A model generated the notes under the pieces. That model was not told where the DNA came from. It made no database searches and was given only the letters and a program-made list of their open reading frames with translations. 30,071 nucleotides of DNA, from contig JAHPZE010000040.1 in the NCBI GenBank assembly GCA_019058365.1, forward strand, positions 1-30,071. The letters are read 5' to 3'. Both the position numbers and the translations under genes were made by a program. Positions 23,649 through 30,071 of the stretch are shown here, piece by piece; position 1 is the stretch's first letter; every line of letters starts with the position of its first letter. The DNA is from Promethearchaeota archaeon (GTDB lineage: Archaea; Asgardarchaeota; Lokiarchaeia; Sigyniarchaeales; SOKP01).

Positions 23649-25700
23649 TCAATATTGCTCAAATTCATGATCTTCTTCATTCTCAAAGAGATCTGAATGA
23701 GGCTCAAGAAAATTATTTTGGCACATTGGACATGAGTTATATTTCGAAAGCCAAAATGCAACGCATAAATAATGATATGTACTTCCACAGAAAGGACAAG
23801 TAATCACCTTATCATCAGCAAAATTTATATATTTATGACAAACTGTACATTGAACATCAGATTTTGATATACCCTTTCTTATTTTCACTCTATTTGCAAG
23901 GATCGTTTCCAATTTTGATACTTCTACTTGATAAAGACCTAAAGAATTACTTAATTGATTAATTTTAGATTTTATCTCTGAAATTCTTTCTTTTAATTCT
24001 TCTTCACTTAATTTCTCTGCAAGAAAGGAAGATAATGCAAAGTTAAGAGGTAATCCCTCGAAATTTTCTGTTTGCTCGGTAATTTCAGTAATTGTGGCAA
24101 ACAGAATTCCCTCTTTTTCAATTAATTCTTTAAAGCTTTTAAATAATTTGTTCAGAAGAAGTGATATAAGAAACGTTAACTGTTGTTTTTTACGATTTAA
24201 ACTCTCTTCCCAAAATTTAATGACTTGATATATATCAATATCATTTGATTTCATAGAATTCAATTTCTTAAAAACATCATCTTTAATTTTTTGGATTTGT
24301 TGATAGTAATCATTTAAAATCTCTTTAATTCTTTTTAATTGTGGAAATTCTTCCTTAATTATTAGAGATGCCTCATCCTCGTAGGATCTGATTAAATCAT
24401 TAACTTCTGAGATTTTATCAGACACAAACTTTCTTATTTCAACTCGTAATTCCTCATCTTTTACGGTTTTAATAAAAGAGAGATATTCATTTTTTCTACG
24501 AAAGATTTCAGAGGTTAAATTTGAAAAAATCTTTCGCAATCCAACTGTAATATTTTCATAAGGATTGAGAAGAGGCTCAATGCGTAATGCCCAATCTTCA
24601 ATATCATAAAGTATTGAAGAAAAACTATCAATTTTCTGGTAATAAAAATTAGTAATTTCTTCAAATTTATCTGTTTCCATTACATTGTGTATTTTCTCTT
24701 GGAATCCTTTTTCCAAGCTAACAATATAATAGTCAACTATTTTTGGTAGAAATTCACTAATTTTTTGATCTTTTAAAGTTTTTAAATTGATACTCAAATC
24801 CTTTTCTTTTAAATTTAATTCCTCAATTTCAATAATAATTTCATGTAATTTATCTATAATTAACTGTGTAAGTAGAGGAAGTATGAAATCCGTTAAATTT
24901 TGTATTACTTCTTTCCTTTCAAGTATATTAATGAATTCTTCTCCTTGATATGGCTCAAAAATGTTATTTAAATACAACAGATAAATTAAATCAGAATAAA
25001 AATTAATTTTGCTATCATCTTTTGAGAGAAAAAATTGATAAATATCATCAAAATGAAAAGTCAAAATCTTCTCAGTTTTATCTTTTTTTCTTTTGCTTAA
25101 GAATACCTCATTTAAACTATTAACAAAAATAACAAGTTCTTTTAATTCATTCCAGTCCTCTAAAGCATGAGGAATATCATTTAATTTAAAATTTAAATTT
25201 TTAATTCTGTTAATTTCTATCCATAATTTCGTAGTATCTTCTTGAATAGTTTTAATCTCTTTAATAGATTCCTGCAGTTTAGAACCCAGATGGGTACTAT
25301 CCATAAGAAGATCTTCTATTCGTTTTAATGATTCCTCTAAGAGAGTAGTATTTTTTGTTATTCTTTTAATATTTCTTATATTTGAGTTAAGATTCTGTAA
25401 ATTATCAGTTATAACTTTTAATTCATTCAATATTTCTGTTTTTAAATAAAAAAAATCTGAACTTGTGGTAGATAATAAATAGTGTTCTGTAAAATTAGTT
25501 ATGTCTTTTAAATAAGTTGAATATTGATCTAATAATTCAATAGAAAGGTTTAACTTTGATTTTACATAGGTATCAATCTTATCTTCCCCACCGTCTTCAA
25601 CTTTAAGCTTTCCAAGTGTATCTTTAATTTCTAAAATCTCATCTTTATTAAAACTAAGGATTTCTCTAGTTTCATCAAAGGTGTTATTTGAAAAATTCAA
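23649..25700 (-). CDS. Large helical protein with a C-terminal C4HC3 RING finger (putative E3 ligase)
   Basis: CTVC...CPFC....H..C...W......CPMC near the C-terminus after about 600 aa of helical/coiled-coil sequence; AGGT upstream of the TTG start. Confidence 0.8.
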   Translation of the reverse strand: MNFSNNTFDETREILSFNKDEILEIKDTLGKLKVEDGGEDKIDTYVKSKLNLSIELLDQYSTYLKDITNFTEHYLLSTTSSDFFYLKTEILNELKVITDNLQNLNSNIRNIKRITKNTTLLEESLKRIEDLLMDSTHLGSKLQESIKEIKTIQEDTTKLWIEINRIKNLNFKLNDIPHALEDWNELKELVIFVNSLNEVFLSKRKKDKTEKILTFHFDDIYQFFLSKDDSKINFYSDLIYLLYLNNIFEPYQGEEFINILERKEVIQNLTDFILPLLTQLIIDKLHEIIIEIEELNLKEKDLSINLKTLKDQKISEFLPKIVDYYIVSLEKGFQEKIHNVMETDKFEEITNFYYQKIDSFSSILYDIEDWALRIEPLLNPYENITVGLRKIFSNLTSEIFRRKNEYLSFIKTVKDEELRVEIRKFVSDKISEVNDLIRSYEDEASLIIKEEFPQLKRIKEILNDYYQQIQKIKDDVFKKLNSMKSNDIDIYQVIKFWEESLNRKKQQLTFLISLLLNKLFKSFKELIEKEGILFATITEITEQTENFEGLPLNFALSSFLAEKLSEEELKERISEIKSKINQLSNSLGLYQVEVSKLETILANRVKIRKGISKSDVQCTVCHKYINFADDKVITCPFCGSTYHYLCVAFWLSKYNSCPMCQNNFLEPHSDLFENEEDHEFEQY

Positions 25701-25816
25701 CTTGATTTTACCTGTTATTAGCGTTAAGTATCTAATAATTAGTAAGCTTTTTTACAATAAATTCTTATTGGTTAAAGGTAGATCGTTTGAAATATAAGAG
25801 CTATGAGTTTGAGCAA

Positions 25817-26437
25817 TTATTCTCCCGTTTCTTTAATCTCAAAAAATTTCTCTTTAGATCCTTCAACTGTTATAGTTAAAAGGTCTATTCCATTTCCGGT
25901 CATAGCATCTCGTTTAATTGAATTTCTAATTGCTTTCTCAACAAGTTTCTCACCTTGTGCAACTGTCATATCTTTTTTATATTCTGCTTCTAAAATACCA
26001 ATAGAGAGTAACATTCCTGTTCCAGCAGTTCCGTAATCATCTTCCATAAGTGAACCAAGTGCATCGAGTGTGTACAATTTGGGTCCATCTTTATCCATTC
26101 CAGCTATCACCAAATTTGTATATAACGGAGCCATTTTACGCGAGTAAAGGTAATTTGAAACCATCTTACCCATACTTTTTGTTGAGATTCGCTCTCCTGT
26201 CTCTAATTCGTAGAGATTAGCTTGCGCTCGTAAAATTCTTACAAGAATTTGAAAATCTCCAATTAAACCATATGCAGCTAAACCTATGTGTTCTGTAATT
26301 TTAAACACTTTTTGTGTTGATTTATTTGTAACTGTATAGCCCCATGTGGCTCGACGGTCGTTTCCAAGCACAACACCATCTTTACATTTGATAGCTACTC
26401 CTACAGCCCCGGGGACCATAATCTGCTGTTCCGACAT
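25817..26437 (-). CDS. psmB: Proteasome beta subunit, probably non-catalytic (Thr1 replaced by Ala)
   Basis: DGVVLGNDRRAT, KVFKI, GLIGDFQ, LVIAGMD, LDALGS, AGTG, RDAMTGNGID. The N-terminus reads PG-AVGV instead of G-TTTV. GAGGA upstream of the ATG. Confidence 0.93.
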   Translation of the reverse strand: MSEQQIMVPGAVGVAIKCKDGVVLGNDRRATWGYTVTNKSTQKVFKITEHIGLAAYGLIGDFQILVRILRAQANLYELETGERISTKSMGKMVSNYLYSRKMAPLYTNLVIAGMDKDGPKLYTLDALGSLMEDDYGTAGTGMLLSIGILEAEYKKDMTVAQGEKLVEKAIRNSIKRDAMTGNGIDLLTITVEGSKEKFFEIKETGE

Positions 26438-26514
26438 TTTAATCCTCTTAAAATCTAAATTATTGAATTAATAAGTTATATTTTGATAATATAAATAATC
26501 AAAATTAATTAAAA

Positions 26515-26681
26515 TTTTTCTTTTAAATTATAAAATTTTACCTTTTTCCCCTAAAAATCCAACTTTTTCATTCCCATACTTAACTTATCGTTGATAATAT
26601 TTCAATCGACCCTATAATCTCCAGATTAAAATTAATTTTTGCTTCTTAATTTGATTATGCCTTAATTCATATGATCAAATA
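26515..26681 (+). repeat. Direct repeat copy A (~167 bp)
   Basis: Aligns with 29305-29471 at an offset of 2790. The core 26601-26681 has 6 mismatches in 81 nt and includes the exact 24-mer ATCTCCAGATTAAAATTAATTTTT. Confidence 0.9.
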
Positions 26682-26981
26682 GATTCAAATTCAATGATGC
26701 TAAGAACTGGAAAGAATTTCGATTTATTTCACTTTACTCAATCTATATCGAAATTAACTATTATTTTGTCTTGAAAATTCTAATATGTTTTCCAGTATTA
26801 GAATATTTTTATCCAAATTGAAGAACTCTTTCAAAAGTTTGATGTGTATTATATATTTCCATATTCTACTAATATTATTATCTGAATTATCAAAAATATT
26901 TAAATATTAAGGCAGGATTATTAATTATAAAAAATTTTTTATACATTTTTGGGATAATCCAAAATATTCAAGTAAATTTGA

Positions 26982-28418
26982 ATGAGAATGCCTAATATAG
27001 AGAAATTAATTCAAAAAAAAAATGTTAAAGGTTTAATAAAAGCTTTAAAGGATTTAGATAATTTTGTTAGAACAAAAGCAGCATTAACTCTAGGGAAAAT
27101 CGGAGATTCAAGGGCAGTAGACCCACTCATTCGAGCTTTAAAGGACGAAGATGAAAAAGTTCGCAAGGGGGCATCCTTGGCTCTTAGAGTAATTGGAAAA
27201 TCTGCGGTGGAGTCACTCCTTCGAATTTTGGATAATTTAGATGAAACTAATGAAATTCGAAGGAATGTAGCGAACATTCTTAGAGAAATCGAAGATCCAA
27301 GAGCAATAGAACCATTCATTCGGGCTTTAAAGGATAATGATAGAGAAGTTCGAAGGGAAGCAGCAAGATTTCTTAGGAAAATTGGGGATCCGAGAACAGT
27401 AAAACCATTCATTCAGGCTTTAAAGGATTTTGATGGAGAAGTTCGAAGGGAAGCAGCGGGAGCTCTTAGGGAATTTGGGGATCCGTTGACAGTAGAACCT
27501 CTCATTCGAGCTTTAAAGGACGAATATGGAGAAGTTCGAAGGGAAGCAGTAGAAGCCCTTGGGAAAATTGGGGATCTGAGAGCTGTAGAACCTTTCATTC
27601 GAGCTTTAAAGGATAGCAATAGAGAAGTTCGAAGGGAAGTAGCAGAATTTCTTAGGAAAATTGGGGATCCGAGAACAGTAGAGCCATTCATTCGAGCTTT
27701 AAAGGATTTTGATGGAGAAGTTCGAAGAGAAGCAGCAGAAGCTCTTGGGAAAATCGGGGATCCAAAAGCTGTAGAATCATTAACTCAAGCTTTAAAGGAC
27801 GAATATGGATATATTAGAAGTGAAGCAGCGGAAGCCCTTGGGAGAATCGGGGATCCAAGAGCTGTAGAATCATTAACTCAAGCTATAAAGGACGAAGATA
27901 CAGATGTTCGTTATAAATCAACAGGAGCTCTTAGGAAAATTGGGGATCCGAGGGCTATAGAACCACTTATTCGAGCTTTAGAGGACGAATATGGACATAT
28001 TAGAAGAGAAGCAGCAGAAGCCCTTGGGGAAATCGTGAATCCAAGGGCAGTAGAACCACTTATTCAAGCTTTAAAGGATGTAGATATACCTGTTAGAATG
28101 AAAGCAGCAAAAGCCCTTGGGAAAATCGGAAATCCAAAGGCAATAGAACCACTCATTCGAGCATTAGAGAATGAATATGGATATATTGAAAGGGAAACCA
28201 TAGAAGCCCTTGGGGAAATCAGTGATTCAAGGGCAGTAGAACCACTCATTCGAGCTTTGAAGGACGAAGAAAAAGAAATTAGAAGTGAAGCAGTGAAAGC
28301 CCTTGGGAAAATCGGGGATCCAAGAGCTATAGAATCATTAACTCAAGCTTTAAAAGATGAAGATGATGAAGTTCGAAAGAAAGTAAGAGAGGCTCTCGGG
28401 AAAATTAAAAATTCATGA
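26982..28418 (+). CDS. HEAT-repeat (PBS lyase/alphaRep-type) protein, about 15 repeats of 31 aa
   Basis: Consensus DxxxxVRxxAAxALGxIGDPRAVEPLIxALK, recognisable as 93-nt DNA repeats. Confidence 0.92.
   Translation: MRMPNIEKLIQKKNVKGLIKALKDLDNFVRTKAALTLGKIGDSRAVDPLIRALKDEDEKVRKGASLALRVIGKSAVESLLRILDNLDETNEIRRNVANILREIEDPRAIEPFIRALKDNDREVRREAARFLRKIGDPRTVKPFIQALKDFDGEVRREAAGALREFGDPLTVEPLIRALKDEYGEVRREAVEALGKIGDLRAVEPFIRALKDSNREVRREVAEFLRKIGDPRTVEPFIRALKDFDGEVRREAAEALGKIGDPKAVESLTQALKDEYGYIRSEAAEALGRIGDPRAVESLTQAIKDEDTDVRYKSTGALRKIGDPRAIEPLIRALEDEYGHIRREAAEALGEIVNPRAVEPLIQALKDVDIPVRMKAAKALGKIGNPKAIEPLIRALENEYGYIERETIEALGEISDSRAVEPLIRALKDEEKEIRSEAVKALGKIGDPRAIESLTQALKDEDDEVRKKVREALGKIKNS
27051..28415 (+). 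repeat. Intragenic 93-bp tandem repeats with a 279-bp super-repeat
   Basis: Recurrent GAAGTTCGAAGGGAAGCAG and GCTTTAAAGGA. Block 27333-27611 (DNDRE/DFDGE/DEYGE) is echoed by 27612-27890 (DSNRE/DFDGE/DEYGY). Confidence 0.85.
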
Positions 28419-28552
28419 GTACAGAAACTATTCCATTAGAAATAGTCATTGCAAGTAAGGATTTTATTCAGTCTCTTTTCAATATTATTATAGTAAGAAC
28501 ATACCCATCTAACCTTTTTTAATTTTATTTCAAAAATCATTATGGAAATTAT

Positions 28553-29011
28553 TTAGATTACTTTACTGGTAATAAATTTACCAATAATTTTAACACATTC
28601 TATTATGAATTTTTTTAACGCTTTTTTCTTTCCTTTAGCGCTTGTATTTTTATATTCGCTGTATATCTCCGCTAATCTCTCCCAAGAAGTATTAAGATGT
28701 TCTCTTATATAATTTCCAAGATCAATTTGTTGTTCGCGCATCGTGTTTAATTTAATAAATAATATTTCTAGAAATATTTTTTGTGGTCGTTCTGGATATT
28801 TTTTAATATAAAGATCTATTGCTAAATTAACATCTTCGACTGATGCTTTTTCTCTTCTTGCTCTAATTGCGAATCTTATAGCCTCTTGGTTTATATGTTG
28901 AAAGTAAGGATGATCTATTATGTACTTTATTGTATTCTTATCAAATTTTTGATTATTTGGAAGATTTTGAAGGCCTAAAAATCTTTTAACAAAATTCTCT
29001 TCATTCTCCAT
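28553..29011 (-). CDS. Hypothetical protein with a segment resembling the AAA+ lid of PAN/Rpt or the histone-fold alpha2-L2-alpha3
   Basis: Residues 43-72, EAIRFAIRARREKASVEDVNLAIDLYIKKY; GAGGA upstream of the ATG. Confidence 0.7.
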   Translation of the reverse strand: MENEENFVKRFLGLQNLPNNQKFDKNTIKYIIDHPYFQHINQEAIRFAIRARREKASVEDVNLAIDLYIKKYPERPQKIFLEILFIKLNTMREQQIDLGNYIREHLNTSWERLAEIYSEYKNTSAKGKKKALKKFIIECVKIIGKFITSKVI

Positions 29012-29304
29012 TTTAGTCCTCTTTTTTGAGATACATATTTGGGATCATTTTTACTGCTTGAGATTGGATTCTCCTAAACTAATAAATTAGTAAGTATTCT
29101 CGTTTTATAAATTTGTCTAAATATTCAAAAAACTTTTCATAACAGCAAGATTAGAACTGAATCAATTGAGATAAATTTTTTGTGCTTTATTTTGTCATAA
29201 TATGAATAAAAATGTATAACTTATGTTTCAATATCAATATCCCGTAGAGATATTTTCCTAAAGCTTATGGCTTTAGGAATATCTTATTTAATAAAACAGA
29301 TTAT

Positions 29305-29471
29305 TTTTTCTTTTAATCTATAAAAATTTCCTTATTCCCTTAAAATTCCAAATTTTCTTATTCCCATTTTAAATATATCATTTTTACTTTTTCAATTGAC
29401 TCTATGATCTCCAGATTAAAATTAATTTTTACTTCTTAATTTGATTATGTCTTAATTGATATGATCAAATA
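29305..29471 (+). repeat. Direct repeat copy B (~167 bp)
   Basis: See copy A at 26515-26681. Confidence 0.9.
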
Positions 29472-30030
29472 AATAATCCTATAAAATTCAAAAGGGATTA
29501 TTTTTTTTAATTAAAAATTTTTTCATTCACCATTGAATCACTATAAAAACTATAATATAGATAGTTTAACCATAATTGATATTGGAATAATTTTATTTCT
29601 ATAAAAATCAACATATCTTTTTTGACGGGTTGACCATTATATGATCACATAATTAATGATATTAACATTTGTTGCGGATCACTTTTATCAATTAGATATT
29701 TATTAATTCGCCACTAAATAATAGCCAAACTAAGATAAAAGGCAATTTTGCCAAAATTAATATTTGAATAATGGTTATACCAACAAAAACATTTCATATT
29801 TTTACCATGATCAACCATTGAATGATCACAGATGATGGGCAATTTTTTATAATAAAAATTTTTTGTCGTGATTTTTTTTTTATTTAACTCTTCAAACTCT
29901 TCTGATTTGCCATAACATTTAAATAACTCTTCACATATTATATTATCTAAGAAACTTTACTAATAACTTCAAAAAAAATTAAAAATTTAAATTTTTAAAA
30001 TTTTGAATAAAAAAGTTGGAGGAATAAAAA

Positions 30031-30071
30031 ATGGCTAAAAAGAAACATTCTTTCGCATGGAGCCCAATTCG
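30031..30071 (+). CDS. 5' end of a probable archaeal histone (histone-fold) gene, cut by the window edge
   Basis: GGAGG at 30018-30022, then MAKKKHSFAWSPI(R). FAWSPIR matches the alpha-1 start I recall for Lokiarchaeal histones; only 13 complete codons are visible. Confidence 0.6.
   Translation, partial: MAKKKHSFAWSPI

Follow-up and report, generated by a model that had tools for sequence, protein, structure and literature searches.

ORF152, a putative histone-fold variant with a Loki-lineage C-terminal module in a strain-specific insert of a Promethearchaeota archaeon

The described proteins closest to the one reported here are the archaeal nucleosomal histones, such as HMfB and HPhA (Pfam family CBFD_NFYB_HMF), and the coiled-coil histone HMfC together with the Mc and phage histones. 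In HMfC, Mc and phage histones a C-terminal domain tetramerises the dimers and bridges DNA (Schwab et al. 2024, PMC11390915). Histone folds have been argued to share a helix-strand-helix unit with the helical domain of AAA+ proteins, the histone fold being derived by a domain swap (Alva et al. 2007, PMC1847821). The subject of this report is the product of the open reading frame (ORF) ORF152 (28553-29011, minus strand; stop codon at 28553-28555), a predicted all-helical protein of 152 residues with an isoelectric point (pI) of 9.6. It is encoded on a contig of 30,071 nt (C15), the whole of which was analysed and is called the window below, from the 4.7-Mb genome of a Promethearchaeota archaeon (30 % GC, 54 contigs). 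ORF152 is likely to derive from an archaeal histone, to be helical and to consist of two domains, and it may represent an adaptor or bridging histone variant located in a strain-specific insert.

ORF152 shares with the archaeal nucleosomal histones the predicted order of the helices, the R...D clamp and basic residues in alpha1 and L2. It differs from them by 80 additional residues at the C-terminus, an insertion in L1, a proline kink in alpha2 and an Arg in place of a His. The DNA-wrapping histones also differ from the three full-length relatives of ORF152, in which alpha1 is acidic and the pI is 5-6. In HMfC, Mc and phage histones, as in ORF152, the histone fold precedes an alpha-helical domain at the C-terminus, and this arrangement serves as the working analogy; the tail of ORF152 belongs to a distinct module of the Loki lineage, which LRR, PCI, TIR and Tudor proteins also bear at their ends. 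A term search of Schwab et al. 2024 (PMC11390915) brought up no family combining a histone fold with the Loki tail module. The HLoC histones (2026 preprint) were considered as proteins of the same kind and rejected, as they are face-to-face histones of another architecture.

Relatives, histone fold and tail module of ORF152

A word-index search with ORF152 returned only ORF152 itself, and six-frame searches of 60 related genomes gave only short matches at chance level (best E 0.002). An exhaustive phmmer search of 1.8e9 representative proteins yielded P0003 (177 residues; E 2.9e-8), a full-length relative with which ORF152 is collinear over residues 13-152 at 31 % identity (pairwise BLASTP). 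From P0003, the proteins P0005 and P0006 (73-86 % identical to P0003) were reached, along with shorter proteins sharing the C-terminal part alone, and a profile search of the family gave 78 proteins. The relatives come from Promethearchaeota and Hermodarchaeota metagenome-assembled genomes, i.e., from Loki-type Asgard archaea. A profile search of genome contigs and viral contigs with an ORF152-led alignment found nothing. The proteins next to P0005 (about 3,700 and 244 residues) carry no informative Pfam domains. Of the four hits of the exhaustive phmmer search, two were dropped as relatives. P0002, a 3,722-residue, S/P/T-rich, eukaryote-like protein, is matched by neither domain hidden Markov model (HMM) and its similarity was judged compositional; P0004 showed a local repeat match only. 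The latter protein (564 residues, secreted-looking) has three repeats that are about 44 % identical to residues 105-145 of ORF152 and that contain the insertion private to the ORF152 tail module; the module HMM does not match it.

The diverged histone fold comprises residues 1-72 (28796-29011, minus strand), as delimited by the helices of an AlphaFold2 (AF2) model, a joint alignment with the canonical histones (A7) and the family profile. Its parts are alpha1 (residues 4-11), L1 (12-24), alpha2 (25-50, kinked at H34-P35), L2 (51-57) and alpha3 (58-71). All three full-length relatives match histone-fold families in Pfam; P0006 exceeds the cut-off of TFIID-31kDa (34.7 vs 29 bits) and P0005 that of CBFD_NFYB_HMF (22.7 vs 21.4 bits). 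The two best Pfam matches of ORF152 are histone-fold families too, albeit below threshold (TAF9, E 0.0016; TAF, E 0.01). When the profile of ORF152 and the three relatives was run against the sequences of the PDB, it matched HPhA (1.9e-9), HMfB (9.2e-8) and HMfA (1.6e-6) from alpha1 to alpha3; up to an E of 10 the matches included no AAA protein. TAF9 was found at 7e-4, so that the family profile is far closer to archaeal histones than to TAF9/TFIID-31kDa (PF02291); ORF152 showed neither a TAF6-like partner nor any other TFIID context.

The N-termini of the relatives, with ORF152 left out, were aligned by hhalign with the six canonical histones of the genome at 97.9 % (E 4.8e-13, 61 columns) and with four AAA lids of the same genome at 1.3 %. 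When the 17,469 ORFs of the genome were searched with an HMM made from the N-termini of the three relatives, ORF152 not included, ORF152 came just after five of the six canonical histones (E 6.7e-6). An hhalign comparison of two of the alignments (A2 and A7) was set aside as circular because they share sequences. R53 and D60, the Arg-Asp clamp that runs from L2 to alpha3 with the Asp seven residues on, are invariant in ORF152, its relatives and the six canonical histones (A7). Apart from this clamp, ORF152 has kept the glycine of L1 and the basic positions of alpha1 (K9, R10) and L2 (R53, K55, S57). Relative to the joint alignment it has lost 3 residues after alpha1 and has gained 6 in L1 and two, with Pro35, in the middle of alpha2. 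Judged by these profile comparisons, residues 1-72 of ORF152 are homologous to the histone fold.

The AF2 model was built on an alignment containing the relatives only (A5) and reached a predicted local distance difference test (pLDDT) score of 74. The six canonical histones were left out of the input, as MAFFT had aligned them with the tail module (A6); a model from the single sequence of ORF152 (pLDDT 54) was not used. Helices are predicted at residues 4-11, 25-33, 35-50, 58-71, 76-93, 98-106, 108-121 and 125-151. Their order is that of a histone fold, with alpha2 broken at H34-P35, followed by four more helices. The weak matches that Foldseek returned for the model were mostly H2B, NF-Y, Dpb4 and other histone folds.

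The histone fold is followed by a linker helix (residues 73-97; 28721-28795, minus strand; AF2 helix 76-93, pLDDT 61-65), at which the relatives are longer by about 25 residues, among them the conserved proximal half of the C-terminal tail module (A2, A5). Residues 98-152 (28556-28720, minus strand) constitute the distal half of this Loki-lineage C-terminal helical module, as recognised by the module HMM and alignment A3. The module comprises about 90 residues, is helical and has the consensus core DDIKSDTELIKEY, DWEKIK, GKxFIKK; its profile positions 33-87 match residues 93-152 of ORF152. An HMM made from nine modules without ORF152 matched ORF152 at E 1.5e-10 in a small set and at 3.6e-8 among the 17,469 genome ORFs. 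Of the conserved module residues, ORF152 has kept L106, W110, E111, Y120, K121, I130, G144 and F147. Profile comparison establishes the homology of both halves of ORF152 and the order of its domains, and the fusion of a histone fold with the tail module is rare, four such sequences having been found.

The tail module invariably forms the extreme C-terminus of its proteins, of which there are 60 or more in the Loki lineage. The heads to which it is joined are LRR (5), PCI (5), histone fold (3), TIR, Tudor and coatomer-appendage-like domains. It occurs in 31 of the 301 genomes of the phylum: 26 of the 68 that belong to the family of the window, two of the seven of a sister family and two elsewhere (4/232 outside the own family). 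The module is almost entirely confined to this one family of Loki-type Asgard archaea, and it was not found in viral contigs. A second copy in the genome (C41:6213-6701) has a coiled-coil-like head. Module proteins of about 190 residues in congeners are orthologues of this second copy and lack a histone fold. The module terminates in a basic amphipathic helix, which could serve in docking to a membrane or a partner.

Twelve of 61 tail-module proteins match the RST domain (PF12174; RCD1-SRO-TAF4) at profile positions of about 15-65, with E down to 5.8e-7, and several of the 12 exceed the 22.7-bit cut-off of that family. ORF152 itself does not match PF12174, and no RST or PAH chain was among the PDB matches of the module profile up to an E of 10. 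The tail-module sequences are rich in K, I and E, and the RST match may therefore be compositional; the link between the module and RST is unproven.

The insert between psmB and the histone gene

ORF152 lies between psmB, the gene of a proteasome beta subunit (25817-26437, minus strand; Pfam Proteasome, E 1.3e-52), and the 5' start of a canonical histone gene of 72 codons (30032-30071, plus strand), which is cut by the end of the contig. The psmB neighbourhoods of 13 genomes of the same genus were compared. In ten of them, psmB is followed on its upstream side by a spacer of about 800 nt and then by a 72-residue histone, the start of which matches that at 30032. The gene for a second protein, HEAT478, accompanies ORF152 in the window, and neither of the two is present at the psmB locus in any of the 13 congeners. 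Window positions 26438-26684 and 29305-30071 both align to the spacer, with an overlap of 170 nt, and 26685-29304 is therefore an insert of 2.6 kb between 170-nt direct repeats. The left copy of the repeat (26515-26684) is native-like, 164 of its 170 positions being identical to those of the closest relative (G005). The right copy (29305-29474) is identical at 147 of 168 positions to G005 and at 146 of 168 to the left copy. This near-native left and more diverged right copy would fit the integration of foreign DNA that bore a diverged copy of the spacer.

Besides HEAT478 and ORF152 the insert holds no ORF of at least 40 residues, and a Pfam search detected no recombinase-like domain in either protein. 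The GC content at third codon positions (GC3) of both genes is host-like (0.18 for ORF152). HEAT478 and ORF152 arrived together in this insert, which is specific to the strain and separates psmB from the histone gene. The first-pass annotation, made from the DNA alone, had described an islet with a probable histone gene about 1 kb away, and on both counts it is borne out. The proximity of psmB and the histone gene to ORF152 is due to the strain-specific insertion and not to conserved synteny; psmB and the histone gene were neighbours ancestrally, and psmB has no conserved link to the insert.

Several further observations concern the surroundings of the insert. In two other species of the genus, unrelated small ORFs without a Pfam family lie just upstream of psmB (L016:2911-3300 and L021:2882-3385, both on the minus strand; 129 and 167 residues), and genes specific to single strains may have landed repeatedly in the psmB-histone spacer. 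The spacer itself contains about three degenerate tandem units of some 180 nt with a mutual identity of 66-74 %, and these units are kept across the genus (window 29305-29830; L010-L022; secondary BLAST matches offset by about 180 nt). The remainder of the cut histone gene forms the end of another contig (C30:113001-113219, minus strand); the two contigs, C15 and C30, therefore abut in the genome. In 12 of the 13 congeneric loci a 683-residue protein with a RING finger at its end adjoins psmB at 60-96 % identity (window 23649-26437, psmB included). The mature region of the psmB product begins with G-A-V-G and not with the usual Thr nucleophile.

HEAT478 (26982-28418, plus strand) is a PBS-lyase-type HEAT-repeat protein of 478 residues, with 13 Pfam stretches of HEAT_2 (E 7.6e-113) and HEAT_PBS (E 9.6e-97). 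These tandem repeats are those of the PBS-lyase HEAT-like repeat proteins, and its best, partial NCBIfam matches are CpcE and NblB. The gene is built of 11-12 tandem units of 93 nt (31 residues; window 27017-28391) with a DNA identity of 64-80 %, a likeness that suggests recent repeat expansion or homogenisation. The best paralog in the same genome is 31 % identical, and no counterpart was found in the 60 related genomes at E <= 1e-60. In searches with PADLOC and PHROGs, ORF152 had no match and HEAT478 matched only the generic HEAT portions of defence models.

The first-pass annotation had proposed that the two genes form a module in which the HEAT protein partners ORF152. The genes are convergent and 134 nt apart, and the convergent orientation rules out an operon. 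HEAT-repeat genes were absent from 12 contexts of other family members (about 94 kb), three of which are those of the histone-fold relatives, and the pair recurred neither there nor in the 60 related genomes. The gene-pair co-occurrence that would be looked for in a Hsm3/S5b-type HEAT chaperone with an Rpt C-domain client is thus lacking here. HEAT478 is a fellow passenger of ORF152 and no demonstrated partner of it.

Weighing the alternatives

Several results weigh against the descent of ORF152 from a histone and its role as a histone variant. Taken alone, ORF152 stays under every curated threshold (18.9 bits vs a cut-off of 29) and reaches only 8 % in hhalign with the histones of its own genome (E 0.004, 31 columns). 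Its significant match is limited to the second part of alpha2, L2 and alpha3; alpha1 and L1 are poorly conserved, with the L1 insertion and the proline in mid-alpha2. The His at the tetramer interface of canonical histones is an Arg (R50) in ORF152. Foldseek gave no significant match for the model, the best E being 0.5. The best-conserved part of the tail module, its proximal half (the DDIKSDTELIKEY stretch), is absent or unrecognisable, with a gap of about 25 residues. Finally, no orthologue was found in the 60 related genomes.

Some of these points would equally suit a decaying passenger, i.e., a truncated, fast-drifting copy of a gene for a histone fold with tail module that the insert brought in and that is non-functional or marginally functional. 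ORF152 is known from one genome and forms a cluster of one; compared with its relatives it lacks the most conserved stretch of the module, carries indels in L1 and alpha2 as well as an 11-residue insertion within the module, and scores lowest in its own family. The occurrence of other, unrelated small ORFs in the same spacer of two congeners points in the same direction. Against this stand the 152 codons that remain open, free of frameshifts, in a stretch of 27 % GC where stops are frequent, the GC3 (0.18) like that of host genes, the retention of the distal half-module residues and of the R-D clamp, and the coherent helical model. Decay to a non-functional or marginal state is therefore regarded as a good deal less likely than a functional histone variant, although ORF152 is a diverged and possibly decaying histone-fold protein with half a tail module.

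The split of alpha2 in the AF2 model into helices 25-33 and 35-50 allows a different structural reading, according to which the insertion with Pro35 breaks alpha2 and leaves an un-swapped fold: a monomeric, closed four-helix bundle with the topology of an AAA lid and no handshake dimer. Among the weak structural matches, lid chains align over residues 1-75 of the model at low root-mean-square deviation (rmsd), while histone H4 aligns over residues 30-71 alone and whole histone folds at an rmsd of 6-7.6 A; the values of these structural matches are too low and too near one another for a choice between the folds. The domain-swap relation of the two folds is a published one (PMC1847821). A predicted complex of two copies of residues 1-75 (A7) had a median score of 0.32 vs a mark of 0.42 and was not used for or against dimerisation. 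Such a closed bundle is considered improbable. A shade less probable again is that the proline insertion reversed the histone fold to an AAA-lid-like domain that could dock on lid-binding HEAT/ARM proteins. Such a change would amount to undoing, in nature, the domain swap from which the histones are proposed to have arisen.

The first-pass annotation had started from a 30-residue segment that it likened both to the C-terminal lid of the proteasomal ATPase Rpt1 and to the end of a histone fold. This segment corresponds to residues 43-72 of ORF152 in translation (28796-28885, minus strand) and is a helix-strand-helix motif formed by the end of alpha2, L2 and alpha3. The absence of Walker motifs, noted at the time, was confirmed by a regular-expression search for Walker A and Walker B patterns. 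The lid likeness stood in part. Compared with the best PAN of the same genome, the segment is identical at 13 of 32 positions (blastp E 0.034 against three sequences; z 4.7 vs shuffles); compared with the second PAN, z is 0.2. Against two histones of the genome z is 4.7-4.9, and the histone likeness, including the spacing of R and D, was upheld by the invariant R53-D60 pair. On these comparisons the two resemblances are both real, both short and equal in size, and the segment looked at once lid- and histone-like because the two folds share one helix-strand-helix motif.

Beyond this motif no lid was detected in the sequence and profile comparisons. A Pfam scan with E up to 1 gave no match of ORF152 to PF17862 (AAA_lid_3), and when the genome was searched in six frames with this profile (E up to 0.1), nine true lids were recovered and not ORF152. 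ORF152 itself, like the family profile, had no AAA protein among its PDB sequence matches at E up to 10. With the lids of the genome, hhalign gave 0.7 % for ORF152 alone (E 0.08) and 1.3 % for the family, vs the 97.9 % of the family with histones. The AAA_lid_3 of PAN and Rpt1 follows a P-loop ATPase domain, whereas ORF152 has only 152 residues, lacks Walker motifs and a preceding ATPase domain, and has histones as its relatives instead. The profile comparisons that had been called for returned histones, through the relatives, and no lid, and at the level of family membership a lid mimic is largely refuted. That ORF152 should be a free-standing mimic of the PAN/Rpt C-terminal lid, modulating proteasome assembly together with an Hsm3/S5b-like HEAT protein beside psmB, is highly improbable, given a likeness limited to a motif common to both folds (PMC1847821), a HEAT protein that is of the PBS-lyase type, convergent and absent from the 12 other family contexts, and an adjacency to psmB peculiar to one strain. 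The divergent histone variant that the first-pass annotation had offered as its other option is the one that agrees with the family profile (E 1.9e-9) and with relatives above the Pfam thresholds.

Proposed role and meaning

As a histone variant, ORF152 would pair its histone fold with another one, either its own or that of a canonical histone, of which the genome has six. Through the tail module, this pair would then be tied to the common partner or assembly of the module, or higher-order assembly would be driven. By analogy with the coiled-coil and phage histones, which oligomerise via a C-terminal helical domain (PMC11390915), ORF152 may thus act as an adaptor or bridging variant. DNA binding stays possible, as suggested by the basic residues of alpha1 and L2 and the pI of 9.6.

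For the locus, the account of a proteasome-lid mimic with a HEAT chaperone is removed as unsupported. ORF152 adds one architecture to the growing list of prokaryotic histone-fold variants. The module at its C-terminus, which in Loki-type Asgard archaea forms the end of proteins whose interaction domains are eukaryote-like (PCI, Tudor, LRR, TIR), may merit a study of its own.
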